Shown: piece after piece, positions 28,632 through 46,642 of the stretch
Layout: every line of letters begins with the position of its first letter
How positions within the stretch are numbered: position 1 is the stretch's first letter
Assembly (NCBI GenBank): GCA_046597055.1
Contig: JBKJLC010000293.1
Location: 32,001 to 96,000, forward strand
Origin: Kofleriaceae bacterium
GTDB lineage: Bacteria > Myxococcota_A > Polyangia > Haliangiales > Haliangiaceae
Direction: 5' to 3'
Length of the DNA: 64,000 nt
Notes under the pieces: generated by a model
What the model saw: the letters and a program-made list of their open reading frames with translations, nothing else
What the model was told of the DNA's origin: nothing
Databases searched by the model: none
Position numbers and translations under genes: made by a program

Positions 28632-29363
<732 letters not shown>

Positions 29364-29410
29364 CCGAGCGGGGCCCCTGGGTGCCCCGCGACGCGTGCTA
29401 AAGACTGGCG

Positions 29411-31177
<1,767 letters not shown>

Positions 31178-34695: not shown

Positions 34696-35742
34696 ATGAA
34701 GCCCAGCGTGTTCGTCCTGATCGTGCTGGCGGCCGGCTGCGGCCGGGACGAGCTCCGGGTGTCCGGCTCCACGTACGCTTACACTCCCGGCGCGCCGGAC
34801 TGGATCTCTCAGCGGACGCATCTCCTTGCACCGCGCGCTGCACATGGGCTGGTCGCACTACCCGGCCGCGCGTTCCTCGTGATCGGCGGCGACCGCGGCA
34901 AGCTCGACTCGTCGCCCACGGTCGAGCCCGCGCTCGACATCGAGCGCTGCGTGCTCGGCGAACCCGCGTGTGTCGTTGTCGGCCGGCTCGCGCGTCCGAC
35001 CGAACAACCGACGGTCGCGCGCGCGCCCGACGGGACGATCGTGGTCGCCGATTGGCGCGGACTTCAGATCTTCGATCCCGCCACCGGGACGACCGCGGAG
35101 GTCCCGGTGGCGCCACACACGATCGTCGCGACGGCCGCTGGCGTCGTCCTGCTCGGGATCGAGGGTGCGCGGGATCGGACCACGAACCTCCCCGGGCCGT
35201 ACCAGTTCGGCCTGTTCCGCGGCCAGGCCACGGGTCTCGAGCCGCTCGCGGCCGCCCCCAACGCGGCGTGGGCAGGCGGGGTGGATGTGCTCGACGGAGA
35301 TCGCATCGTCACGGCATCGCGCACGAGCTCGGCGCTGCTCGACGTCGCGACCGAGACGTGGACGGTGCTACCGAGCCTGCCGACGGAGACGTTCACGACG
35401 CACGTGGTGCAGGTCGGGGACGGCCTCGTGCTCGCGATTCCCGACGGCGCTCCGAAGGCGTATTTGCTCTCGGCGGCCACGCTGCGTTGGACGGCCGTCG
35501 CCGTGCCCACGACCACGGACCATGTGCAGCACGCGCTCACGGTCCCGGGCGGGGCCGTGGTGGTCACCAGTGACGGCGTCGGCGGCGCGACCCGTACGTT
35601 CCGCGTCAGCGATGGGTCCTGGCTCGCGGGCCCGCCCCCGCCGCCGTGGTCGATCCTGAACGCCGCGGTCGTGCTCGACGACGGCACGGTGATCTCGGTG
35701 GGAGGGTGCGACTCCAACTTCATCGACGCGCGCGCGTCGTGA
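34696..35742 (+). CDS. Lipoprotein, Kelch/beta-propeller-like
   Basis: MKPSVFVLIVLAAGC lipobox; LVIGG and ISVGG with Trp-containing repeats. Confidence 0.65.
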   Translation: MKPSVFVLIVLAAGCGRDELRVSGSTYAYTPGAPDWISQRTHLLAPRAAHGLVALPGRAFLVIGGDRGKLDSSPTVEPALDIERCVLGEPACVVVGRLARPTEQPTVARAPDGTIVVADWRGLQIFDPATGTTAEVPVAPHTIVATAAGVVLLGIEGARDRTTNLPGPYQFGLFRGQATGLEPLAAAPNAAWAGGVDVLDGDRIVTASRTSSALLDVATETWTVLPSLPTETFTTHVVQVGDGLVLAIPDGAPKAYLLSAATLRWTAVAVPTTTDHVQHALTVPGGAVVVTSDGVGGATRTFRVSDGSWLAGPPPPPWSILNAAVVLDDGTVISVGGCDSNFIDARAS

Positions 35743-35810
35743 CCTGCGCTGGTCGCCTGCACGTGACCGGTGGCGGTCGGCCGGGCGTCGGCGACCGCGG
35801 CGGTGATGCG

Positions 35811-35882
35811 TACCCACGAAGGGAATCGAACCCTCTCCATCGGTTTGAAAGGCCGAGGTCCTGACCACTGGACGACGCGGGC
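35811..35882 (-). tRNA. tRNA-Glu(TTC)
   Basis: Cloverleaf; anticodon loop CTTTCAA; T loop GGTTCGATTCC. Confidence 0.85.
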
Positions 35883-35896
35883 GGTGACAGACGGGG

Positions 35897-35964
35897 TGCC
35901 TCTGGCAGGAATCGAACCTGCTCACCAGGTGTCGGAGACCCGGGTCGGATCCGTCCACAGAGGC
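35897..35964 (-). tRNA. tRNA-Arg(CCG), shortened D arm
   Basis: Acceptor GCCTCTG/CAGAGGC; loop CTCCGAC. Confidence 0.7.
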
Positions 35965-35975
35965 GAGAAACGCGG

Positions 35976-36049
35976 AGCCCACCGACGGATTCGAACCGTC
36001 CTCTCTCCCGTACCAGGGGGGTGTGTCCGACCAGGATCACCAGATGGGC
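35976..36049 (-). tRNA. tRNA-Thr(GGT)
   Basis: Loop CTGGTAC; GGTTCGAATCC. Confidence 0.75.
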
Positions 36050-36062
36050 GTGAGCGTTGCGG

Positions 36063-36135
36063 TCGGGATCGAGAGGATCGAACTCTCCCATTTCGCCGTG
36101 TGAGAGCGACCTCACCCCCAGGTGAGCTGATCCCG
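36063..36135 (-). tRNA. tRNA-Val(CAC)
   Basis: Acceptor CGGGATC/GATCCCG; loop CTCACAC. Confidence 0.75.
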
Positions 36136-36142
36136 ATTTCAA

Positions 36143-36216
36143 TGGAGCACTCGCCCGGATTTGCACCGGGATGACACGGTTTGCAGCCATGCGCCTGACT
36201 CTTCGGCCACGAGTGC
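36143..36216 (-). tRNA. tRNA-Cys(GCA), CCA encoded
   Basis: Loop CTGCAAA; U73; ends TCCA. Confidence 0.85.
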
Positions 36217-36220
36217 GTGG

Positions 36221-36294
36221 TGGTGGACCCGGGGGGATTCGAACCCCCGTCTCTGCTGTGCGAGAGCAGGATCTTGCCGCTGGACGACAGGCCC
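36221..36294 (-). tRNA. tRNA-Ala(CGC), CCA encoded
   Basis: Loop CTCGCAC; G3:U70. Confidence 0.88.
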
Positions 36295-36308
36295 GGAAGG
36301 AACACGAG

Positions 36309-36381
36309 CGGCCCTGACGGGAATCGAACCCGCCTGGATCTCATAGACAGTGAGAGAACGTCACCAGACGTATCCAGGGCC
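36309..36381 (-). tRNA. tRNA-Asp(GTC)
   Basis: Loop CTGTCTA; G73. Confidence 0.8.
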
Positions 36382-36403
36382 GTGAACGAGAGACGAATGA
36401 TGT

Positions 36404-36477
36404 TGGTGGAGTCGGACGGATTCGCACCGTCGTCACTGACATGCCGAGCCAGTGTTCTGCTGTTGAACTACGACCCC
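36404..36477 (-). tRNA. tRNA-Ala(GGC), CCA encoded
   Basis: Loop TCGGCAT; G3:U70. Confidence 0.8.
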
Positions 36478-36481
36478 GGGG

Positions 36482-36554
36482 TCCCGTCGATGGGAATCGA
36501 ACCCACCTGGTACTGGGAGACAGCCAGCTGACGTCACCAGACGTCTCCGACGAG
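36482..36554 (-). tRNA. tRNA-Asp(GTC), second copy, A73
   Basis: Loop CTGTCTC; D arm shared with the 36309 copy. Confidence 0.7.
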
Positions 36555-36564
36555 CAGACAGACG

Positions 36565-36635
36565 TGGAGCTGGAGGGAATCGCACCCCCGTCGCTGGCAT
36601 GTCGGACCAGCATTCTGCTGTTGAACTACAGCTCC
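36565..36635 (-). tRNA. tRNA-Val(GAC)
   Basis: Loop CCGACAT; acceptor GGAGCTG/CAGCTCC. Confidence 0.78.
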
Positions 36636-36639
36636 TCAG

Positions 36640-36711
36640 TCGGAATGACAGGACTTGCACCTGCAGCCTCACCGTCCCGAACGGCGCGTTCTTCTATTGA
36701 ACTACATCCCG
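36640..36711 (-). tRNA. tRNA-Pro(CGG)
   Basis: Loop TTCGGGA; C1:G72, A73. Confidence 0.85.
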
Positions 36712-36814
36712 AGGCGGACGAGGGCCCGACCCGGGGGGGCCGGTCGGACAGGTCCTCGTCCTGTGGAAACATGAGAGCTCGGCCGCAGGCGCCGCCTGAC
36801 GCGAACGTAGTGAG

Positions 36815-36900
36815 CGGAAGGAAAGGGAATCGAACCCTCGACACATGGATCCTGTGCGCGCGATTAGCAGTCGCGGTCCTCGACCAGCCGGACTCCTTCC
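36815..36900 (-). tRNA. tRNA-Ser(GCT)
   Basis: Loop CTGCTAA; long variable arm; G73. Confidence 0.85.
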
Positions 36901-36972
36901 CGAACCGACCCACGACGGACGCTGACTGTCGACCGAGATCGGCAGCCGGGCTCCGGGGTGGGTATCGGTTTG

Positions 36973-37064
36973 CGGAGGGAGAGGGAGTCGAACCCCCAAG
37001 GCATCTCGAAGATGCTCGCGCGGCTTTCGAAACCGGCACCGTCGCCACATCGGCTTGCCCCTCC
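36973..37064 (-). tRNA. tRNA-Ser(CGA)
   Basis: Loop TTCGAAA; long variable arm; G73. Confidence 0.85.
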
Positions 37065-37178
37065 AGATCGATGCCTCACGCGCCACCCTGCTGGCGCCAC
37101 GACCGGGGCCATCACTCCCTGGTCGCGGCGCTCCGCCGCCGCCGCCCACCCGCCGCCACGTGTGTCAACGCGAGAGAG

Positions 37179-37727
37179 TCACGAGGCCAGCTCCCCGTCG
37201 CTCTCGATCTCGCCGGTCCAGTACAAGTAGTCACGCCACGCGTCAGGCATCGACCGCGTGCTGACCCTGATCGTCACCGCCGGCACCCAGGTCGGGCGCG
37301 CCGGCTCCATCCGCAGCTTCATCCCGGCCTCGGCCGGCGTCCGGTTGCCCTTCGATCCGTTGCACGGATAGCAGCAGGTCACGATGTTCTCCCAGGTGGT
37401 CTTGCCGCCGCGGGCACGGGGAACCACGTGGTCGTAGGTCAGCTCCGCCAGCGTGCACTTGGTCGCGCAGTACTGGCACTTGTAGCCGTCACGCGCGTAG
37501 ATGTTCACGCGCGAGAACTTGACGGGCTTGCGGTATCGCCGGAACGCACGGATCAACCGCACGACCGCCGGCACCTTGATGATGAGCGTCACCGCTCGGA
37601 TCTCGGCGTCGTACTCCTCGACCACCTCCACCTTGCCGAGGGTCAGGAGGGTGATCGCCCGCTGCCACGGGATGACCTTGATGGGCTCGTACCCCTGCGA
37701 CAGGAGCAGCGTCGTCGCGTGACTCAT
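37179..37727 (-). CDS. HNH endonuclease inside the tRNA array
   Basis: RDGYKCQYC, TYDHVVPRARGG, WENIVTCCYPCNGSKGN. Confidence 0.93.
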   Translation of the reverse strand: MSHATTLLLSQGYEPIKVIPWQRAITLLTLGKVEVVEEYDAEIRAVTLIIKVPAVVRLIRAFRRYRKPVKFSRVNIYARDGYKCQYCATKCTLAELTYDHVVPRARGGKTTWENIVTCCYPCNGSKGNRTPAEAGMKLRMEPARPTWVPAVTIRVSTRSMPDAWRDYLYWTGEIESDGELAS

Positions 37728-37789
37728 GACGGTCCGTGTTCCTTTCCCCGGTCACTGTCTTTCAGGCGCGCCCCGGTGCCAGCGCGCCA

Positions 37790-37811
37790 TCGGCCCACGA
37801 CGTGTGGGCAA
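37790..37811 (-). promoter_or_regulatory. Ro-site-like bulged-C hairpin upstream of the HNH gene
   Basis: TTGCCCAC-ACGTC-GTGGG[C]CGA. Confidence 0.55.
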
Positions 37812-37824
37812 AAACTGCGTGTCG

Positions 37825-37899
37825 TGCCCTCCGTCGGATTCGAACCGACACTGCCCAGATTCTGAGACTGGTGACTCCTTCCAGTTGGTCTAGGAGGGC
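37825..37899 (-). tRNA. tRNA-Leu(CAG) with short variable region
   Basis: Loop CTCAGAA; variable region only GCAGT; A73. Confidence 0.75.
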
Positions 37900-37900
37900 G

Positions 37901-37977
37901 TGGAGTGATCGACGGGACTCGCACCCGCTAGGACGAGGTTCACGGCCTCGCGCCTGGACGACTTTGGCTTCGATCAC
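37901..37977 (-). tRNA. tRNA-His(GTG), atypical (U73, no encoded G-1), CCA encoded
   Basis: Loop CCGTGAA; acceptor GTGATCG/CGATCAC. Confidence 0.75.
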
Positions 37978-37979
37978 GG

Positions 37980-38050
37980 TCCGCCCGGGAGGAATCGCAC
38001 CTCCGTCGTCCGGTTATCGGCCGGGTGCTCTGCTGTTGAGCTACGGGTGG
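37980..38050 (-). tRNA. tRNA-Ile(GAT)
   Basis: Loop CCGATAA. Confidence 0.75.
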
Positions 38051-38057
38051 GAAAGAC

Positions 38058-38185
38058 TGGGGTGGGTGGCCTGGATTCGAACCTGGCATCTGCGGCTCCC
38101 TGAGAACCCTCTTCTGACGGCCCGGTGACGGGCAAGCTGACGAGGAGGGGCCATAACCGCCGTCCTGCCACTGGACGACACCCAC
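38058..38185 (-). ncRNA. tRNA-shaped Y-RNA-like element A, CCA encoded
   Basis: Acceptor, D and T arms intact; anticodon loop replaced by ~60 nt containing CTTGCCCG-TCAC-CGGGCCG. Confidence 0.75.
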
Positions 38186-38199
38186 GTACGAAGTAGCAG

Positions 38200-38326
38200 T
38201 GCAGGCAGCTGGACTCGAACCAGCGTCACACGCGTTAACACGATAACCATCCAGCGTCGGCCCGCGACCGGGCGAGGTGAGTACAGGACGGATCCACGTT
38301 GCGCTACCGGGCTGAGCTACACCTGC
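38200..38326 (-). ncRNA. tRNA-shaped Y-RNA-like element B
   Basis: Insert with CTCGCCCG-GTCG-CGGGCCGA...GGATGGTTATCG. Confidence 0.75.
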
Positions 38327-38347
38327 GAAGAAACACAACACGAGTCG

Positions 38348-38472
38348 TGTGGACGGCCGGAGTCGAACCGGCGCGTGCGGTTTGCGACGATAACCGACTT
38401 CGACGGCCCGTGACCGGGCGAGGGTTGTGAAGACGAGATCTTTCCGCCGTCCTACCGTTAGACGACGTCCAC
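38348..38472 (-). ncRNA. tRNA-shaped Y-RNA-like element C
   Basis: Insert with CTCGCCCG-GTCA-CGGGCCG...GGTTATCG. Confidence 0.75.
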
Positions 38473-38477
38473 GTGCG

Positions 38478-38605
38478 TGCAGGTGGCTGGATTCGAACCA
38501 GCGGCCAACGGATTGATAATCGATGACCATCCGACATCGGCCCGTCGCCGGGCGAGGTTGTGAAGGACGGGTTTACGTTGCTCTACCGGACTGAGCTACA
38601 CCTGC
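38478..38605 (-). ncRNA. tRNA-shaped Y-RNA-like element D
   Basis: Insert with CTCGCCCG-GCGA-CGGGCCGA...GGATGGTCATCG. Confidence 0.75.
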
Positions 38606-38620
38606 AAAGAAAAACATGCG

Positions 38621-38692
38621 TCTGGATGACTGGAATCGCACCAGCGGCCTCGTGATCCCCGAACACGCGCCCTGCTCCTGAGCTACACCCAG
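38621..38692 (-). tRNA. tRNA-Pro(GGG)
   Basis: Loop TCGGGGA; C1:G72, A73. Confidence 0.75.
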
Positions 38693-38693
38693 A

Positions 38694-38792
38694 TGGGGCG
38701 GGACTTTGGATTCGAACCATGTAGACCGATAACCATCCATCGTTCGGCCCGTTTCCGGGCAAGGGCACTTTGATAGACGGACTCGTCCCGCC
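38694..38792 (-). ncRNA. Y-RNA-like element E without a D arm
   Basis: GGCGGGAC/GTCCCGCC-CCA stem, GGTTCGAATCC, CTTGCCCG-GAAA-CGGGCCGA...GGTTATCG. Confidence 0.7.
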
Positions 38793-38797
38793 AGAAG

Positions 38798-38867
38798 TCG
38801 CAACGGAAGGACTCGAACCTTCACCGGCGCGGATATGAGCCGCGCGTCCTCGCCCGAGGTCGCTGCG
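38798..38867 (-). tRNA. tRNA-Met/Ile2(CAT), small D loop
   Basis: Stem CGCGG/CCGCG; loop CTCATAT. Confidence 0.72.
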
Positions 38868-38868
38868 A

Positions 38869-38939
38869 TGGGGCAACGGCGGGAGTCGCACCCACTGACC
38901 GGCGGGAACCCCGCCGGTCCTCCACGCGAACTCGTTGCC
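38869..38939 (-). pseudogene. Degenerate tRNA-like element (GTT in an over-paired anticodon arm)
   Basis: GGCAACG/CGTTGCC-CCA; T loop GGTGCGACTCC; CCGGCGGG-GTT-CCCGCCGG. Confidence 0.55.
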
Positions 38940-38944
38940 ACGAG

Positions 38945-39011
38945 CACGCCGCCAGAGAATCGAACTCTGCAGTCCGGGGTTGGAATCCAGACTCTTCCCA
39001 GAAGGCGACGC
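38945..39011 (-). tRNA. tRNA-Trp(CCA), shortened D arm
   Basis: Loop TTCCAAC; G73. Confidence 0.65.
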
Positions 39012-39080
39012 AAGTTGCAAGCATCAACATGTCACTTCCACTCCCCTCCAGTTACAGCTCGAGAATAGAAGTGGCGATCG

Positions 39081-39150
39081 TGCCACCGACAGGATTCGAA
39101 CCCGTACCGACGACGTTCGTAGCGTCGCGTCCCATCCTCGGGACGGTGGC
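39081..39150 (-). tRNA. tRNA-Arg(ACG)
   Basis: Stem CGACG/CGTCG; loop CTACGAA. Confidence 0.8.
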
Positions 39151-39152
39151 AG

Positions 39153-39345
39153 ACAGGCAAGTGGCTGTGTTGGAGTGCGCCTTGTTCAGGGGCGCGGCGT
39201 CCAGAGCGCGCGGTTGCCCGTTTACGCTCGTCGACACGCACGCGGCGATCTACGAGAGACCGCCTCGCGCTGGCTCGCATCGGTCGCCCGATGGTCGCTA
39301 CCTTGGGCCCGTTATAGTTACGGTAACCAACACATTCCGGCCCGT
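39153..39345 (-). ncRNA. Y-RNA-like RNA carrying a 23S rRNA H69-H71-like module
   Basis: Termini ACGGG[C]CGG / CTTGCCTGT; inner stem TGTGTTGG/CCAACACA; contains CCGTAACTATAACGGGCCCAAGGTAGCGA. Confidence 0.7.
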
Positions 39346-39349
39346 GACG

Positions 39350-39422
39350 TATCCCTGGGGGGAATCGAACCCGCCATACCTGGTTTGAGAGACCAGTAGA
39401 CTGACCACTGTCTGACAGGGAC
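39350..39422 (-). tRNA. tRNA-Glu(CTC)
   Basis: Stem CTGGT/ACCAG; loop CTCTCAA. Confidence 0.82.
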
Positions 39423-39472
39423 ATCTTCGCGTGGCGCTTGCGCCCAAGGCGCCTCACGCCACGCGATCTTCG

Positions 39473-39545
39473 AGGGCCCGGCGGGAATCGAACCCGCACC
39501 TCGCAGTTTAACAGACTGCCGCTCAGCCAGTTGAGCTTCGGACCC
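39473..39545 (-). tRNA. tRNA-Asn(GTT)
   Basis: Stem GCAGT/ACTGC; loop CTGTTAA. Confidence 0.85.
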
Positions 39546-39617
39546 AGACACGCCACGGTCGTGAGACCGCGGCGCGTGCGTGTTGAGGGCGACTCTCGTC
39601 GTGGCCTGGGCCGAAGC

Positions 39618-41255
39618 CTAGGCGCGGGCGAAGTCGCTGATCACCGGCGGCGTCGCCGTGTCGAAACCGACCACGTCGAGCATGCCGGCGTCGTTCGGGT
39701 CCGCGATCGTGAACCCGTTCGAGGTCATCCCGACCACCACCAGCTTGGCCGGGATGCCGCGCGCCTGTCGATAGGCGCGCAGGGCCTGGGCCGGGTGCAC
39801 GCTCCCGGCCCAGGTCTCGCTGTCCGTGTACACCACGAAGGTGTCCACATCCACCTTGTGCCGCTGCGCCCAGATCATCGGGAGCGCGCAGTCGGTTCCA
39901 CCCATCGGCAGCTTGGCGACCGCCGCGACCACGTCGTCGAGCCGCTGGCGCGGCGAGATCGACAGGGTCGTGATGCCCGACTCGCCACCGCCGTGCATGC
40001 CGCCGTAGCCACCGCTCGCCGCGGTGAAGCCCACGAACGTGTGGTCACGCTCGGTCGCCGCGGTGATCAGCGCCATCGCCGCGCTGCCGACCCGCGGCGT
40101 CAGGCCGGGCACCCCGGCGATGGTGCCGCACGCCATCGAGCCCGACACGTCGAGCGCGAGCAGCATGCGCTTGCCGGCCGGCTCGACCGCCTTGAACGAG
40201 GCGTAGAACGCACCGTCCAGGGCGTCGATGATCGGCGTCACCGGCGTCCAGGTGCCGCTGCCACGGACGCTCTTGCCACCCTGGTAGGTCAGGAGCGCCG
40301 CCAGGACCGCGACCGGGTGGACGCGGGCCTTGGCGATCCGGTTCGCATCACCCAGCCGCGCGACCACGGTGTTGGTCGCGTTGGCACCCGGCGCGAGCAA
40401 GCCCGCACGGGTCATCGTGGCCAGGTTCCGGATCATCGCCGTCATGGGCATGTCGACCAGCAGCGCGTCCCACACGCCGGCGTCGTTCAGCCAGCGCGTC
40501 GGCAGCGTCTCGCGCGGCAGCCGGAACTCGCGCACCAGCGCCGCCACCTCGGCCGCAGTACCGGCCGCCTTCACCGCCTCCATGCCGATCAGCAACCGCA
40601 GCGCCGGGTCGGCGCTCGCGCCATCCGGCACGGTTCCCTTGGTCACCCACGAGAACAGCCGATCGTGCGATGGCGACGCGGCGCGCGGGTGCGCGAGCCG
40701 CAGCAGGTCTCGGTTCGACCAGCCGTCCCGCTGCTGGTACTTCACCAGCTGCAGCGCGAGGTCGGCCGCCGGCTTGTCGTTGAACCAGCCGGCCACCGCC
40801 TTGCGCATGCCACGGCCCCAGCCGCCGAAGCCCTGCGCGTACTCCGCGAAGTGCATGAGGTGAGTGCCGATGCGGCAGACCGTCGGCAGGGCAGCGTAGG
40901 CGCTCTTGCGAGTCGCCTCGTCGCCGAGCTTGGCGGCCAGCGCCAGGGCGAAGATCGCCGGGTCGTTCTTGGGCGCCCGACCCGCCTGCGAGATCTCGGC
41001 GATCCGCGCGACCGTGCGCGGACCGTCGGCTGCCACGCAGCGGACCACCGTCTGGGCAGTCTCGAGCGTCAGCTTCTGCTCGGAGATGTAGTAGGTGCCG
41101 CCCTCGCTACCCAGGATGAGGAAGCGATCGAGCCGCGCCCAGTCGTCGACCGGCCAGGCGAAGCCCCCGGCCAGGTTCGGCACCTGCGCCGTACCCGGGA
41201 TCGGCTGCGACTGCGGCGTCGCCTGCGTCGAGAAGAACTTGGTGAACTTGAACAC
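39618..41255 (-). CDS. rsr: Ro60 / TROVE-domain RNA-binding protein
   Basis: TPQSQPIPG, RLDRFLILGSEGGTYY, KYQQRDGW, AMIRNLATMT, vWA DVSGSM, GGTDCALP, TDSETW; GTG start with GGAGG. Confidence 0.96.
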   Translation of the reverse strand: MFKFTKFFSTQATPQSQPIPGTAQVPNLAGGFAWPVDDWARLDRFLILGSEGGTYYISEQKLTLETAQTVVRCVAADGPRTVARIAEISQAGRAPKNDPAIFALALAAKLGDEATRKSAYAALPTVCRIGTHLMHFAEYAQGFGGWGRGMRKAVAGWFNDKPAADLALQLVKYQQRDGWSNRDLLRLAHPRAASPSHDRLFSWVTKGTVPDGASADPALRLLIGMEAVKAAGTAAEVAALVREFRLPRETLPTRWLNDAGVWDALLVDMPMTAMIRNLATMTRAGLLAPGANATNTVVARLGDANRIAKARVHPVAVLAALLTYQGGKSVRGSGTWTPVTPIIDALDGAFYASFKAVEPAGKRMLLALDVSGSMACGTIAGVPGLTPRVGSAAMALITAATERDHTFVGFTAASGGYGGMHGGGESGITTLSISPRQRLDDVVAAVAKLPMGGTDCALPMIWAQRHKVDVDTFVVYTDSETWAGSVHPAQALRAYRQARGIPAKLVVVGMTSNGFTIADPNDAGMLDVVGFDTATPPVISDFARA

Positions 41256-41261
41256 GGCACG

Positions 41262-41322
41262 CCTCCGGCCCACGCGGTGGGCACTGCTGGTTGGGCTCGG
41301 CCACGCACCATGCGCGGCGAGC
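41262..41322 (-). promoter_or_regulatory. Two Ro-site-like hairpins in the rsr leader, one abutting the SD
   Basis: GCTCGCCGCGCA-TGG-TGCGTGG[C]CGAGC and TGCCCAC-CGC-GTGGG[C]CG-GAGG. Confidence 0.6.
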
Positions 41323-41417
41323 GAGATCTGTAATGAGGAATCGCTTCGCGAAGCGCTCGATGCCTCCCGGCGGCATCGCCGCCGCACCACCGGAGGTGGC
41401 GGACTGGCGAGTCTTCG

Positions 41418-41489
41418 AGCCGGTCGGAGGAATCGAACCTCGTTGGGTCGCTTACGGAACGACTGCTCGCCCAGCGAGCTACGACCGGC
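41418..41489 (-). tRNA. tRNA-Thr(CGT)
   Basis: Loop TCCGTAA; GGTTCGATTCC. Confidence 0.75.
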
Positions 41490-41497
41490 GGAAACTG

Positions 41498-41556
41498 GCG
41501 GACAAGTGGCACTCGTGGGGGTCTGTTATCAGGAGAACCCACGAGCATCGGCCCGC
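41498..41556 (-). ncRNA. Minimal (~59 nt) Y-RNA-like stem
   Basis: GCGGG[C]CGA-T-GCTCGTGGG...CCCACGAGT-GCCAC-TTGTCCGC. Confidence 0.7.
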
Positions 41557-41560
41557 GCAG

Positions 41561-41631
41561 AGCGGCGCGCGGGAGTTGCACCCGCACGGTCAGGGTGGAG
41601 GCCTGGCATGCTGCTGTTACATCAGCGCCGC
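41561..41631 (-). tRNA. tRNA-Gly(TCC)
   Basis: Loop CCTCCAC; U73. Confidence 0.78.
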
Positions 41632-41641
41632 GACACGAAAG

Positions 41642-41712
41642 AGCAGGTGGTGGGAATCGAACCCGCGATCCCGGCATGGCGTACCGGTGTGTCACCACAA
41701 CACTTCACCTGC
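41642..41712 (-). tRNA. tRNA-Gly(GCC)
   Basis: Loop ACGCCAT; U73. Confidence 0.75.
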
Positions 41713-41795
41713 GGCGGTGTGCCTCGAGTGTCCTCGGGGCCACCTGACGGTCGTCGGCGCGCTCGGCAGGGCTTCGCGCGTCGACGAACGCATCG

Positions 41796-41870
41796 TGGGT
41801 CGGGCGGGAATCGAACCCGCGTCGGGGCAGATTAAGAATCTGCTGCAAAGCCAGCGTTTGCTACCGACCC
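41796..41870 (-). tRNA. tRNA-Lys(CTT)
   Basis: Stem GCAGA/TCTGC; loop TTCTTAA. Confidence 0.85.
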
Positions 41871-41899
41871 AGTTGCCGCGCCAGGCGCGGCGAGTCTCG

Positions 41900-41972
41900 T
41901 CCCACCCCCTGGAATCGAACCAGGACCTCTCGGGCTTCAGCCAAGCGCGCAGACCACATGCGCCAGGGTGGG
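41900..41972 (-). tRNA. tRNA-Phe(GAA)
   Basis: Loop CTGAAGC. Confidence 0.8.
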
Positions 41973-42063
41973 GTTGTGCGGTCGCCGCCGACCGCTGGGG
42001 AGCGGGTGACGACGACCTTCCGAAATGGGCGCCCGCGCTACCGGGCGCCCCATCATTCGTCTC

Positions 42064-42080
42064 TTCGGTTGTCAGAGATC
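42064..42080 (-). promoter_or_regulatory. Possible boxA-like antitermination element
   Basis: GATCTCTGACAACCGAA resembles rrn leader boxA-type sequences. Confidence 0.35.
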
Positions 42081-42150
42081 CACCCCGCGCGTCCGTCGGC
42101 CCGTGCGGGCAGACCTCGAGCGGGGCCGCGCCGTTTCATGGGCGCAGCAG

Positions 42151-42224
42151 TACCGGGCCCAGGATTCGAACCTGGATCTGTACGGTTCAGAGCCGTCCGT
42201 CGTGCCGAGTTGGACCAGCCCGGT
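42151..42224 (-). tRNA. tRNA-Gln(CTG)
   Basis: Loop CTCTGAA; GGTTCGAATCC. Confidence 0.78.
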
Positions 42225-42276
42225 GCGTGTCAGTAAGTGCGTCGATCGCCAGTCCCATGACTGACAACGATCGCAG

Positions 42277-42361
42277 TGGGGCGCCCAGGTTTTGAACCTG
42301 GCGGGTCGCGTGCGACGGCGGCTTTACAGGCCGCCCCGTCTCCATAGCGGTCTATCGCCCC
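42277..42361 (-). tRNA. tRNA-Tyr(GTA), first gene of the array
   Basis: Loop CTGTAAA; long variable arm; A73. Confidence 0.82.
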
Positions 42362-42384
42362 GAGGGTGCTGCCGGAACGGCAAC

Positions 42385-42420
42385 GAGAAAGGGCCACCTG
42401 GGTTCGTCCCGGGTGGCCCT
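42385..42420 (-). terminator. Terminator/attenuator-like hairpin upstream of the array
   Basis: AGGGCCACCCGGG-ACGAA-CCCAGGTGGCCCT followed by TTCTC (short U tract). Confidence 0.55.
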
Positions 42421-42450
42421 GTTCACGGAGCTTGAGAGAGTGCTCTCGAG

Positions 42451-42645
42451 CTAGGTGGGAGGGGCCCCCCTGGGATCCTGACCGCCGCGGACGGCGCGAT
42501 TCGCGAGACCGAAGATCTCTTCGATCTTCAGGCACTTGGCGGCGAAGCTGGACGTCAGACACCAGCTCAACTGCGCGGAAACGCGCCCTTGCGGCGAGCC
42601 AGATGGCATCGCATAGGCAAGGTGATGGAGCGAGGTGGTGTTCAT
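42451..42645 (-). CDS. Putative 64-aa leader peptide ending ...DPRGAPPT
   Basis: ATG 42645; stop ~30 nt before the hairpin; no homology evidence. Confidence 0.4.
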   Translation of the reverse strand: MNTTSLHHLAYAMPSGSPQGRVSAQLSWCLTSSFAAKCLKIEEIFGLANRAVRGGQDPRGAPPT

Positions 42646-42778
42646 GGCGGGTGCTTCGACGTCCGAGGTTTCGTTTGGTTCTGCTTTTTTCCGTCCCGAA
42701 CCGGTGCCAGCCTGTGCCGCCCTTCCGTCCGGGTCCCCTGCGATCCGCTCAGTGCAGCAGTCGCGGGTTGATGATCTG

Positions 42779-42807
42779 TGCTTAAAGGGTCTGGCCTCCG
42801 AAGTCAA
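42779..42807 (-). promoter_or_regulatory. Possible sigma70-type promoter for the array
   Basis: TTGACT-N17-TAAGCA in a locally AT-rich tract; weak -10. Confidence 0.3.
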
Positions 42808-42941
42808 ACTCCAATCGAAATTATCTCAGAACTAACAGTCACCATTCGAGTTTCGTCGTCGAGGTCGTCGTCGCAACCGTCGGTGTGCGGCCGTGTCCAC
42901 CGGACATGAGCGTGAGCGGCACGAATGGCACGAACGGTTCG

Positions 42942-43718
42942 ATGGTAGCCACGGAGAGCTCGGTTCTGGTGTCGTTGCGGGAGCTTCGAGAGATCGAGGA
43001 CCGCCGGCTGGTCGAGCGGAAGGAGGCGGCAACCGCCCGCGAGGTGGCCCAGACCCGGGCCTGGGAGGAGGCGGTGGCGCGGCGCGCGCGCGAGCGGACC
43101 GAGCGCGAGGCGGCCGAGGCGGCCGAGGCAGCGCGGTGCGCGGCCGCGCAGGAGCACGCGGCGCGCGCCGACGCCCTCCGGCTCGCGGCGGTCGAGGCGC
43201 AGGCGCGGGCCGAGGCCATGGTCCGGATCGAGGTCGAGCGCGCCAGCCTGGAAGTGGCGCTGCGCCGCGCGGAGCTCGAGCGGCGGCGTCCCCGCTGGCT
43301 CATGACGATCACCGCGGGCATGGCCGCGGTGGCGCTCGCGGTGGGATGGCTGGCGGTCGAGGCGCAGGACGCCGCCCGCGCGCAGCAGCGCGCCGCCGCC
43401 CGCGCGCAGGCCGAAGCCGCGAGCTCGCGGCAGGAGCTCGCGCGCCGGGTCGCGCAGGCCGACGTGCTGGGGCGCAAGATCGCGGACGCGCGGGCCGCGC
43501 TCGAGGCAGAGCGGCGGCGGGTCGAGCGCGCGAAGTCGCAGGCGCAGGCCGAGTGGAACCGTGTCCATGGCGGCAGTCGCCCCAAGCCCGGCAGTGGCAA
43601 GGGTGGCGCCGGCACTGGCAAGGGCGGTCGCGGGAAAGGCAATGGCAGTGGTGGCGGCGTGACTGACAGTCCCCCGGCCGGCGCGGTCAAGGTCTGTACG
43701 GACGGTGTCTTCTGCTGA
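42942..43718 (+). CDS. Coiled-coil membrane protein, hypothetical
   Basis: ESSVLVSLRELREIE, E/R/A-rich coil, one TM, Gly-rich tail. Confidence 0.7.
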   Translation: MVATESSVLVSLRELREIEDRRLVERKEAATAREVAQTRAWEEAVARRARERTEREAAEAAEAARCAAAQEHAARADALRLAAVEAQARAEAMVRIEVERASLEVALRRAELERRRPRWLMTITAGMAAVALAVGWLAVEAQDAARAQQRAAARAQAEAASSRQELARRVAQADVLGRKIADARAALEAERRRVERAKSQAQAEWNRVHGGSRPKPGSGKGGAGTGKGGRGKGNGSGGGVTDSPPAGAVKVCTDGVFC

Positions 43719-43837: not shown

Positions 43838-46642
43838 GTGCCCGCGCGCTACCTGATCGGCGTCGATCTCGGGACGACCAACACCGCGGTCGCCTACGTG
43901 GACACGCGCGCGACCGACCCACGCGTGAAGGTGTTCGAGGTCGTGCAGCTGGTTGCCCCCGGTGAGGTCGCCCCTCGCCGGCAGCTGCCATCGTTCCTGT
44001 ACCTGCCGGGCGAGCACGATCTGGCGCCTGCCGAGACCGCGCTGCCGTGGCGACCGGTCGGCGCCGCCGGCGACAACCGCATCGTGGTCGGCGAGCTCGC
44101 CCGTCACCAGGGCGCGCGCAACCCGTCGCGGATGATCGCCTCGGCCAAGTCCTGGCTGTGCCACCCGGGCGTCGACCGCAAGGCCGCCATCTTGCCGTGG
44201 GGCGAGGGCAGCGGACCGCGGCTGTCGCCGGTGGCCGCCCAGGCAGCGATCCTCGCGCACGTGCGGGCGGCCTGGGACGACCTGATGTCCGGGGAACCGG
44301 ACAGCCAGTTCGTGGCCCAGGACGTCGTGGTCACCTGCCCCGCCTCGTTCGACGAGGCCGCCCGCGAGCTGACCCAGGAGGCGGCCGCGCTGGCCGGCCT
44401 CGAGCGGGTGGTGCTGCTCGAGGAGCCCCAGGCGGCGTTCTATGCCTGGATCGATCGCCACCACAGCCGGGCCCGCACGCTCGCGCCCGGCGAGCGCGTG
44501 CTGGTGTTCGACGTCGGCGGCGGGACGTCGGACTTCACGCTGATCACGGTCGACGCCGACGGCGGCTTCGAGCGCACCGCGGTCGGCGATCATCTGCTCC
44601 TCGGTGGCGACAACGTCGACCTGACCCTGGCCAAGCTGGTCGAGCAGCGGCTCACCGCCGATGGCGGCAAGAAGCTCGATGCCCTCCAGTGGCACGGTCT
44701 GGTCCACGCCTGCCGGCTGGCCAAGGAGACGCTGCTGGGCGACGCCGCCCCGGCCGAGGTGCCGATCACCGTCGCCAGCCGCGGCTCGCGCTTGATCGGC
44801 GGCACGCTGCGCGACCAGATCACGCGCGCGGAGCTCGAGCGGGTGCTGTTCGACGGCTTCTTCCCGGTCGCGACCGCCGACGCCACCCCGGTCCGCGGCC
44901 GCGGCGGCCTGCAGGAGATGGGGCTGCCGTACGCGAGCGACCCGGCGGTGACGCGGCACCTGGCGTCGTTCCTGGCCCGCCACGGCGCGGCCCGGGTCGA
45001 CGCGGTGCTGTTCAATGGTGGCGCCATGACTCCAGTCGCGCTGCGCGCGCGCGTGCTCGGGCAGCTGGCGGCGTGGCAGCCCGATGCGCCACCCCCGCGC
45101 GAGCTCGAGGCGATCGCACCCGAGCTGGCGGTCGCCGTGGGCGCCGCCTATTACGGGCTGGTCCGGCGCGGCCTGGCGACCCGCATCCGCGGTGGTACTC
45201 CGCGCGCGTTCTACATCGGCGTGGCGCGCGTGGCGGCGTCGGGCGGCGTCGCCGCGGCGCGGGTCGAGACCCACACCGCGGTGTGCCTGGCCGGCAAGGG
45301 TCTCGACGAGGGCACCACGGTCGAGCTCGACCGCGACTTCGAGCTGGTGACCAACCGTCCGGTGCGGTTCCGGTTGTACTCGTCGAGCACGCGGACTGAC
45401 CCGCCCGGCACGCTGGTGCCGATCGGCGATGGCCGCGCCGACACGATCGACGACGGCTCCGATCTGCTCGAGCTGCCGCCGATCGTCACGGTGCTGCGCG
45501 CGCGCGGCAAGAGCGCGGTCACGGTCCGGGTCCAGGCGACCGTCACCGAGCTGGGCGCGGTCGAGATCTGGTGCCACGACGTCGCCGATCCGACCGCGCG
45601 CTGGCGGCTATCGTTCGACGTACGCTCGGGTGGCTCGCCGGCGGCCGACGACGACACCGCGGCCAGCGCGGCGCCGCACCCGCGCATCGACGAGGCCAAG
45701 GCGCGCGTGACCGACGGGTTCCGCGGCGACCCCGGGCTGCTGGCGCCGCTCACGCGCGAGCTCGAGGAGATGCTCGAGGCGCGGCGCGACGAGTGGTCGA
45801 TGCACGCGACCCGCGCGCTGTTCGACGCCCTGGCCGACGTGGTCGAGACCCGGCGTCGGTCGGCCGATCACGAGCAGCGCTGGCTCGGCCTGGCCGGGTT
45901 CTGCCTCCGGCCCGGCACCGGCGCCCCGCTCGACGCCTGGCGGGCGCGCCAGATGTGGGGCGTGTTCAACGAGGGGCTGGTCCACGGCAAGACCGAGGCG
46001 TCGCGGCTGGCCTGGTGGATCGTGTGGCGGCGGATCGCCGGCGGCCTCATCCCGGGCCAGCAGGAGCAGATCTACGACCGGCTGGCGACGCTGCTGTTGC
46101 CGAGCGCGCGCCAGCAGAAGAAGCTGAGCGAGATCAAGCCGTCGAAGCAGGAGCTCGGTGAGATGTGGCGCGCGGTCGCCAGCCTCGAGCGCATCCCGGT
46201 CGCGCACAAGCTGAAGCTCGGCGACGAGCTGATGCGGCGGATGGAGACCCGCAAGGGTCGCGAGGACGCTGTCCACCTGTGGGCGCTCGGCCGGATCGCC
46301 GCGCGGGTACCGCTGTACGGGCCGCTCAACACGGTCGTGCCGGCGTCGAAGGCGGCGGCGTGGCTCGACCAGCTGCTGGTGTGGGACTGGCCGGAGCCCG
46401 ACAAGGTCGCCTTCTCGCTGGCGCAGCTCGGCCGGCGCACCGACGACCGCACCCGCGAGCTCTCGGAGCCGCTGCGCGCGCGCCTGGCCGCCTACCTGCG
46501 CGGGCAACCCGGCGGCGACCGCGCCGCGATCCTGGTCGAGCAGGTGGTCGCGCTCGAGGCCCGCGAGGAGCGGGTCGCGCTCGGCGACACGCTGCCGGCC
46601 GGCTTGCGGCTGATGGTCGACGACCCGCCGCCCCCGGCGTGA
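43838..46642 (+). CDS. Hsp70-family protein with C-terminal extension (DUF3731-like)
   Basis: GVDLGTTN, EEPQAAF, DVGGGTSD; tail with WLGLAGFCLRPG, WWIVWRRIAGGL, GDTLPAGLRL. Confidence 0.9.
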   Translation: MPARYLIGVDLGTTNTAVAYVDTRATDPRVKVFEVVQLVAPGEVAPRRQLPSFLYLPGEHDLAPAETALPWRPVGAAGDNRIVVGELARHQGARNPSRMIASAKSWLCHPGVDRKAAILPWGEGSGPRLSPVAAQAAILAHVRAAWDDLMSGEPDSQFVAQDVVVTCPASFDEAARELTQEAAALAGLERVVLLEEPQAAFYAWIDRHHSRARTLAPGERVLVFDVGGGTSDFTLITVDADGGFERTAVGDHLLLGGDNVDLTLAKLVEQRLTADGGKKLDALQWHGLVHACRLAKETLLGDAAPAEVPITVASRGSRLIGGTLRDQITRAELERVLFDGFFPVATADATPVRGRGGLQEMGLPYASDPAVTRHLASFLARHGAARVDAVLFNGGAMTPVALRARVLGQLAAWQPDAPPPRELEAIAPELAVAVGAAYYGLVRRGLATRIRGGTPRAFYIGVARVAASGGVAAARVETHTAVCLAGKGLDEGTTVELDRDFELVTNRPVRFRLYSSSTRTDPPGTLVPIGDGRADTIDDGSDLLELPPIVTVLRARGKSAVTVRVQATVTELGAVEIWCHDVADPTARWRLSFDVRSGGSPAADDDTAASAAPHPRIDEAKARVTDGFRGDPGLLAPLTRELEEMLEARRDEWSMHATRALFDALADVVETRRRSADHEQRWLGLAGFCLRPGTGAPLDAWRARQMWGVFNEGLVHGKTEASRLAWWIVWRRIAGGLIPGQQEQIYDRLATLLLPSARQQKKLSEIKPSKQELGEMWRAVASLERIPVAHKLKLGDELMRRMETRKGREDAVHLWALGRIAARVPLYGPLNTVVPASKAAAWLDQLLVWDWPEPDKVAFSLAQLGRRTDDRTRELSEPLRARLAAYLRGQPGGDRAAILVEQVVALEAREERVALGDTLPAGLRLMVDDPPPPA

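Follow-up and report, generated by a model that had tools for sequence, protein, structure and literature searches.

A 193-nt RNA gene on the minus strand of the 64-kb window, by which we mean the whole stretch of DNA analysed here, is a conserved, structured, single-copy gene tied to rsr, the gene of the Ro60 orthologue. Sequence comparison shows the internal module to be a nearly exact copy of helix 69 (H69) and nucleotides 1925-1936 of 23S rRNA, one that selection has preserved among 27 distinct homologues. We therefore propose, with a probability of roughly 60%, that the RNA is a Y-RNA-class partner of Rsr, serving as a tether or gate whose effector is an H69-H70 mimic.

An RNA gene downstream of rsr within a tRNA array

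The RNA gene lies 270 nt downstream of rsr on the same strand, and rsr itself stands in the midst of 25 minus-strand tRNA genes at 35810-42361 (ARAGORN). Scored with family model R1, a covariance model from the contiguous 5′ 113-154 nt of the RNA, the gene reaches 102.8 bits. Its parts and immediate neighbours are as follows.

39618-41390, minus strand: rsr, Ro60 orthologue (vWA_Ro60, 8.2e-64; TROVE, 5.3e-45)
39349-39422, minus strand: tRNA-Glu(CTC), 3 nt upstream of the RNA
39151-39348: inter-tRNA spacer, filled by the RNA gene
39153-39345, minus strand: RNA gene, from the P1 5′ strand to the P1 3′ strand, 193 nt
39338-39345, minus strand: P1 5′ strand ACGGGC-C-G, with the invariant GGGCCG and bulged C39339; proposed Rsr handle
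39327-39334, minus strand: P2 5′ strand UGUGUUGG, with UUAC next, at the YUAY position of YrlA
39295-39323, minus strand: putative rRNA-mimic module CCGTAACTATAACGGGCCCAAGGTAGCGA, comprising the H69 stem-loop CCGU-AACUAUA-ACGG and the equivalent of 23S nt 1923-1936
39278-39293, minus strand: GNRA-capped hairpin CAUCGG-GCGA-CCGAUG at the H71 position, 4 of 5 pairs with compensatory changes
39238-39270, minus strand: P4 hairpin GCGCGAGGCGGUCUCUCGUAGAUCGCCGCGUGC, 6 of 8 pairs with compensatory changes, and a conserved (U/C)AGCGA block 5′ of the hairpin
39166-39173, minus strand: P2 3′ strand CCAACACA, pairing with UGUGUUGG over 8 bp
39153-39159, minus strand: P1 3′ strand UGCCUGU, placed by fold and alignment
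39080-39150, minus strand: tRNA-Arg(ACG), 2 nt downstream of the RNA, its 5′ processing site coinciding with the end of the RNA contig at 39151

An initial annotation, made from the letters of the DNA, had described paired termini on the minus strand and an adjoining 8-bp stem. Both are present: ACGGGC[C]GG faces CU[U]GCCUGU, with 39345-39340 paired to 39158-39153, C39339 bulged and G39338 paired with U39159, and the 8-bp stem also appears in the minimum free energy (MFE) fold, which shows P1, P2, the H69-like hairpin and the GNRA hairpin. The fold energy of -91.4 kcal/mol compares with -76.0 +/- 4.3 for 200 dinucleotide shuffles, none of which was as good (z -3.6). Given that no sigma-70-like promoter was found in 35400-43200 and that the RNA abuts tRNAs, release by the processing enzymes of its neighbours would be the simplest route to a mature RNA. 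A weak terminator-like hairpin lies 3′ of tRNA-Arg.

Several other features of this region were recorded. An HNH endonuclease ORF lies in the tRNA array (37179-37727, minus strand; HNH_5, 4e-16), and related arrays have a gap of ~800 nt at its place, between tRNA-Leu(GAG) and tRNA-Ser(CGA). The rsr-tRNA array and four other ORFs sit between two Hsp70-like loci 12.6 kb apart, namely DUF2760 plus an Hsp70-like gene at 28632-31177 (plus strand) and an Hsp70-like/DUF3731 gene at 43838-46642 (plus strand); the split may reflect insertion into an Hsp70-like gene trio. No RNA ligase gene was found in the window, and four RtcB ligase genes occur elsewhere in the genome, on contigs C264, C68, C181 and C210, none of them near the array.

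The RNA family follows rsr and its helices covary

Homologues were detected by BLAST in 11 other genomes of the genus. ARAGORN places the RNA after tRNA-Asn and tRNA-Glu(CTC) at all 12 loci, and in 11 of the 12 tRNA-Arg(ACG) follows it immediately. Among 80 rsr loci from public genomes, H69/H70 words were found just downstream of rsr in 25 and an R1 score of at least 85 bits in 26, including loci with only one or two tRNA genes (L068, L074). The closest rsr loci are named as Kofleriaceae, Haliangiales and Myxococcales MAGs. As to the genomic setting of rsr itself, 47 of the 80 loci (L032-L111) have at least five tRNA genes within 6 kb, and rsr also lies in or beside tRNA arrays well outside the myxobacteria, in MAGs labelled Chloroflexia, Caldilineaceae, Ardenticatenaceae, Cyanobacteria and Gaiellaceae.

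Two lineages of the RNA can be distinguished, one located between tRNA-Glu and tRNA-Arg, to which the window belongs, and the other after tRNA-Asn with U-rich flanks. Members of the second lineage (L041, L045-L048, L050, L058) carry GUUUYNA 5′ of P1 and CUUUUU 3′ of P1, flanks that suggest they may have their own termination rather than being released by a downstream tRNA.

At the level of the order, R1 identified the RNA in 40 of 147 genomes, one copy each, all of them from a single family and from three of 25 genera. Every one of the 40 belongs to the 84 genomes that have a TROVE gene, and the 63 genomes lacking one have no copy of the RNA, a co-occurrence whose counts overstate the support, as kin are not independent; the RNA is missing from 44 of the 84 rsr-bearing genomes. 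In 38 of these 40 genomes, a single contig carries both genes; the RNA then always follows rsr on the same strand, at a distance of ~1-1.5 kb. These order tallies take in the unpublished genomes G233 (RNA and rsr) and G234 (rsr), on which alone no conclusion rests. In a sample of 151 genomes from the phylum, scores above 100 bits were confined to the window's genome and one congener. A further 31 weaker R1 matches scored 31-41 bits, of which the one examined (G054) overlaps a true 23S locus; R1 gives true 23S genes 33-35 bits.

The initial annotation had named H69 conservation and covariation as a check; the H69 match is kept at homologous loci, and helices of the RNA covary. In an alignment (A1) of 27 distinct sequences of 163-264 nt, RNAalifold proposed 35 pairs, 19 of them with compensatory change. 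For a curated set of 31 pairs, 95.4% of cells were paired, as against 82.6% in shuffles (0 of 500 reached the observed value) and 32-45% when the partners were slid, and 17 of the 31 pairs change on both sides. P1 pairs are 95.8% formed, two with compensatory change; P1 and P2 together comprise 14 pairs, 90-98% formed, seven with compensatory change, and one P2 pair shifts from GC to AU in 11 of the 27 sequences. The GNRA hairpin and P4 covary freely. The fixed sequence of the H69-like hairpin leaves it without any covariation, which is what a sequence-level mimic should show.

The internal module matches 23S H69-H70

The genome's own 23S gene is absent from the assembly, and the 23S genes of relatives were therefore used as the reference. 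These read CCGTAACTATAACGGTCCTAAGGTAGCGA, then AAUUCCUUGUCGGGUAAGUUCCGAC, a segment that the Rfam LSU model annotates as H69 (6 bp, 7-nt loop), a C-UAA-G pair and the strand leading toward H71. Against these actual genes, the module at 39323-39295 is identical to 23S H69 plus nt 1925-1936 at 27 of 29 positions, bearing out the figure initially put forward. At up to three mismatches, the 23S 29-mer has a single site in the window (39295-39323, two mismatches), and it found no match in 100 shuffles of the window, so that none is expected by chance. No further copy was found in the window's own assembly, and the RNA gene alone gave no LSU (RF02541) match at E <= 10.

Across the 27 homologues, the 29-mer differs from 23S at no position in six, at one in ten, at two in three, and at four or more ungapped positions in eight. 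The H69 15-mer is exact in 21 and altered in six, and AAGGTAGCGA is exact in 23. The eight sequences with at least four differences and the six with an altered 15-mer indicate that the exact loop is not indispensable. The family profile matches the 23S genes of 12 of 12 relatives at E about 1e-9, solely at the H69-H70 segment. Moreover, the equivalents of C1925/G1929 have become A/U in two homologues, representing one event in which the rRNA's own pair is kept.

The strand 3′ of the H69-like hairpin reads GCCCAAGGUAGCGA and continues into the GNRA hairpin. The H71 stem previously claimed at this place stands in part: a GNRA-capped hairpin does occupy the equivalent position, but AAAUUCCUU of H70 and H71's own loop are missing, and the H70 loop UUCCU is absent from the RNA. 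The hairpin is thus a stand-in for H71.

Mimicry past the 29-mer, considered in three ways, is not statistically supported. For a permuted arrangement including the 5′ strand of H67/H68, a position-weight scan placed the best two of ~3000 places at the predicted spot, with just 9.6 and 7.6 bits, not significant alone. For a collinear arrangement extending to the start of H73, R1 aligns CAGCGAAGUAGCA and CCCACGGC without net score gain (35 bits in total). Local alignment to 23S gave p values of 0.015-0.90 for the downstream 200 nt in seven elements (0.90 for the window) and of at least 0.09 for the upstream 130 nt, while a control region reached p 0.025 once. As the alignment statistics are non-significant beyond the 29-mer, an extended junction mimic is not claimed. 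A match in a viral collection, considered as a phage copy, proved to be a genuine 23S gene. Among the 23S genes themselves, those of the close relatives (L017, L018, L021, L023 and L024) have GAAGUAGCA and CCCACGGC (or CCCACGAC) at places where the majority of sampled bacteria have GAAAUUGA and CCCGCGGC.

Two short conserved blocks of the RNA, CAGCGAAG.AGCA and CCCACKGC, resemble the version found in the 23S of close relatives, a hint that the RNA may descend from the lineage's own 23S. Such descent would also fit a 23S gene fragment in decay; this reading, like that of a simple processing spacer between array genes, leaves the RNA with no function of its own. We disfavour this explanation, in either form, as very improbable: the RNA is a single-copy gene in the genomes of three genera, helices lacking any rRNA equivalent show compensatory changes, the 29-mer persists where its flanks fall to 77-85% identity, similarity outside the 29-mer is not significant, and the RNA contigs described below are bounded at the ends of the RNA.

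The terminal helix resembles that of Y RNAs

The Y-RNA-style terminal helix with a bulged C that had been claimed for this RNA was recovered across the family: GGGCCG is invariant in 27 of 27 homologues (GGGCCGA in 15), and the ends pair with covariation. The handle helix (GGGCCG, bulged C) is present in seven RNAs around rsr; besides the RNA described here, it occurs in five loop-capped copies and a 59-nt RNA, within 3.5 kb of rsr.

About 38792-38697, 38605-38478, 38470-38350, 38326-38200 and 38183-38062, minus strand: five tRNA-shaped RNAs with acceptor stem, D arm and T arm
41498-41556, minus strand: 59-nt minimal Y-like RNA, GCGGGCCGAUG ... CCACUUGUCCGC around one hairpin

Two sequence motifs that the initial annotation had described as shared were likewise located, GGTTAYCG in other elements of the array close by and GCCACTTGYC in the 59-nt RNA (41556-41498). 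The 59-nt RNA sits between tRNA-Gly(TCC) and tRNA-Thr(CGT), just upstream of rsr. In the tRNA-shaped RNAs, a loop-capped copy of the handle, CUYGCCCG-NNNN-CGGGCCG, stands where a tRNA has its anticodon arm, with GGAUGGUYAUCG next; they amount to YrlA with its parts arranged as in a tRNA instead of permuted. Their Rfam matches are weak, to tRNA, tRNA-Sec and YrlA below threshold. YrlA also scored weakly at 38546-38673 and at neighbouring places; these hits were rejected, since they fuse the T arm of one tRNA with the D arm of the next, a false-positive type described for YrlA (Chen 2014, PMC4201824).

The description of bacterial Y RNAs in Chen 2014 (PMC4201824) gives a 5′ motif GNCGAAN0-1G, which resembles the GGUCCGA contacted by Xenopus Ro60 and is a likely Ro contact, a YUAY tetranucleotide that begins the next module of YrlA, and a length of 80-130 nt for characterised Y RNAs. 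It also looks for a gene encoded within ~4 kb of a Ro60 orthologue and for a long stem made of the 5′ and 3′ ends. The present gene lies within that distance, P1 and P2 form such a stem, and UUAC or UUAU follows P2 at the place of the YUAY. The 5′ motif fits 10 of the 27 homologues, one of them (L056) in another register, and does not fit the window's GCCGGAAUG; the length, 193 nt here and 163-264 nt in the family, falls outside the range of characterised Y RNAs. Over the window, Rfam at gathering thresholds reported tRNAs only, and at E <= 10 neither an 8.5-kb scan over the array nor one of the RNA gene alone gave a match on the RNA gene, Y_RNA and YrlA (RF02553) included; the homologue L050 returned two junk matches only. 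No Rfam family thus matched the RNA, an outcome that the initial annotation had left to such a scan. ARAGORN and Rfam found no tRNA on 39153-39345, with tRNAs on both sides only, and the RNA contains no GGUUCGAAUCC-type T loop and neither T nor D arms. Having no tRNA-like module, no Rfam match and a length outside 80-130 nt, the RNA is therefore classed as a Y-RNA-like variant and not as YrlA.

YrlA nonetheless provides the closest comparison in plan (RF02553; Chen 2014, PMC4201824; Wang 2018, bioRxiv 10.1101/312249). As described there, its gene lies beside rsr, its ends pair into an extended stem that bears a G-rich motif on the 5′ side, the stem leads into a tetranucleotide of the YUAY type, and a handle is joined in modular fashion to an effector imitating a translation RNA. 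The differences are that the effector of YrlA is a tRNA mimic, whereas that of the window RNA would be an rRNA H69-H70 mimic without T or D arms, and that the window RNA is housed between array tRNAs and would be cut out of the tRNA array. The tRNA-ordered RNAs of the same array share the handle CUYGCCCG...CGGGCCG followed by GGUYAUCG, but combine it with a full tRNA body and an open acceptor stem, whereas the window RNA has an open handle and an rRNA-like body. A precedent for the proposed tether and gate is Yrn1 of Deinococcus radiodurans, which tethers Rsr to PNPase (RYPER) and gates the ring (as summarised in PMC4201824 and 10.1101/312249); its module is unrelated in sequence. Another large structured non-coding RNA found in tRNA arrays is GOLLD, in Mycobacterium (Morgado et al. 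2020, via PMC9569102); it is an unrelated family with no rsr link reported in that account, and the RNA gene gave no match to Rfam's GOLLD.

A search of the literature outside subscription journals found no rRNA-like Y RNA and no natural H69 mimic, in agreement with the earlier statement that no described Y RNA with an rRNA-mimic domain was known. Ribosomal-protein mRNA leaders also imitate rRNA binding sites, so that a cellular RNA copies local rRNA structure for recognition by an rRNA-binding factor; these leaders are cis-regulatory, protein-specific and rarely exact in sequence, and we know of no ribosomal protein that binds H69.

The exactness of the copy at the most conserved rRNA positions, together with the location of the RNA in a 25-tRNA array, would also suit a decoy or sponge independent of Rsr. 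The H69-H70 copy would then mop up an agent that attacks or binds this part of the ribosome, for instance a toxin with nuclease activity, an antibiotic that binds H69 or a modifying enzyme; the RNA would belong to a reserve translation kit in the array, and its terminal stem would serve for stability alone. Units of tRNA arrays have been called putative anti-defence systems (PMC12803027). We regard such a decoy as unlikely, since the RNA follows rsr and not the array, being present at rsr loci with one or two tRNA genes and in 0 of 63 rsr-less genomes, since the terminal helix is common to all Y-like RNAs around rsr, and since neither the H70 loop UUCCU nor H71's own loop is present.

The Y-type handle and the linkage to rsr would equally be expected if the rRNA-like module were a pseudo-substrate, imitating a 23S precursor or damaged rRNA, filling the substrate surface of Rsr and holding the ring closed until a real substrate competes, with no third partner. 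The known role of Rsr concerns the ends of 23S and not domain IV, nothing in our analysis puts H69 among Rsr substrates, and the exact H69 loop in 21 of 27 homologues would be left unexplained; we consider this explanation quite unlikely. In its favour, Rsr aids 23S maturation as a Y-RNA-free protein and is inhibited by bound Y RNA, as reported in Chen 2014 (PMC4201824) and Wang 2018 (10.1101/312249).

Environmental RNA contigs are bounded by the ends of the RNA

RNA runs X18, X19 and X20 and the DNA run X1 were compared with 38600-39600 as contigs, which show neither strand nor level. The DNA run is collinear with this stretch and near-identical to it, and may represent the source sample. Within the 1-kb stretch, the soil metatranscriptome contigs of X19 and X20 lie solely on 39151-39345, with the proviso that an RNA library can also hold DNA; their contigs and depths are identical, probably reflecting one data set, and the two runs were therefore counted as one observation. 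A 168-nt contig in X19/X20 runs from 39274 to 39151, then through five extra letters, and then from 39345 to 39306, thereby joining the 3′ end of the RNA, at the tRNA-Arg processing site, to its 5′ end. This junction could mean that the RNA is circular, that the relative in question has a tandem copy in its DNA, or that a ligase or a template switch produced an artefact. A gapped pattern of the joined ends had five matches in metagenome contigs, all unrelated and none with an R1 match. Two more X19/X20 contigs share only the core from H69 to the GNRA hairpin (39273-39321, four mismatches each) and have other flanks, which points to further variants of the RNA in soil RNA. X18, which bears another habitat label, has a 241-nt contig over 38733-38972 that is 93% alike and holds tRNA-Met and parts of the elements on either side. 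Runs X4-X17 showed small word shares, on which no habitat claim is based.

Proposed mechanism

For an Rsr partner of the Y RNA class, the preferred reading, the following course may be envisaged. The RNA would be transcribed together with rsr and the tRNA array, and processing of the flanking tRNA-Glu and tRNA-Arg would free an RNA of ~195-200 nt. Its paired ends, with GGGCCG, the bulged C and the opposite CUUGYCYG, would form the helix on which Rsr docks, as their resemblance to known Y RNAs and their recurrence around rsr suggest. The copy of H69 and of strand 1925-1936 would then be displayed, propped by the GNRA hairpin where H71 would be. H69 is the core of intersubunit bridge B2a, and the module may be read by a factor that normally reads the exposed 50S subunit interface; candidates are an H69-binding protein, for example one involved in modification, splitting or recycling, or else the decoding region of the 30S subunit. 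In this way the RNA would act as tether and gate, the mode known for Y RNAs. Within the module, the H69 loop and CCUAAGGUAGCGA are the parts predicted to matter for a partner or a phenotype. As an outcome, Rsr and its exonuclease partners could be brought to ribosome-related targets, or Rsr could be held inactive. The decoyed or recruited partners listed in the initial annotation (ribotoxins, RRF, RluD/RlmH, RNA repair enzymes) are guesses.

In addition, the head-to-tail junction allows a bolder version, which we hold to be doubtful. After tRNA-type processing, the RNA would become a covalently closed circle, its ends joined across the Rsr handle in the manner of the loop-capped handle of its neighbours. 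It would then be a miniature of the subunit-bridging surface, taken from the lineage's own 23S, and an exonuclease-proof tether by which, under stress, Rsr and its nucleases would dock onto the 30S subunit or onto factors that read H69.

Bacterial Y RNAs are known as tRNA mimics. If the proposed role of the RNA is correct, the Y RNA scaffold would be a general display platform for look-alikes of the translation machinery, and Ro60 biology would point directly at the ribosomal subunit interface. The RNA also offers a defined bait for pull-downs of H69 readers off the ribosome. Should the head-to-tail junction be real, it would represent a rare bacterial circular non-coding RNA, and a circular tether, if true, would be a new link from Ro60 RNA surveillance to the ribosome interface.
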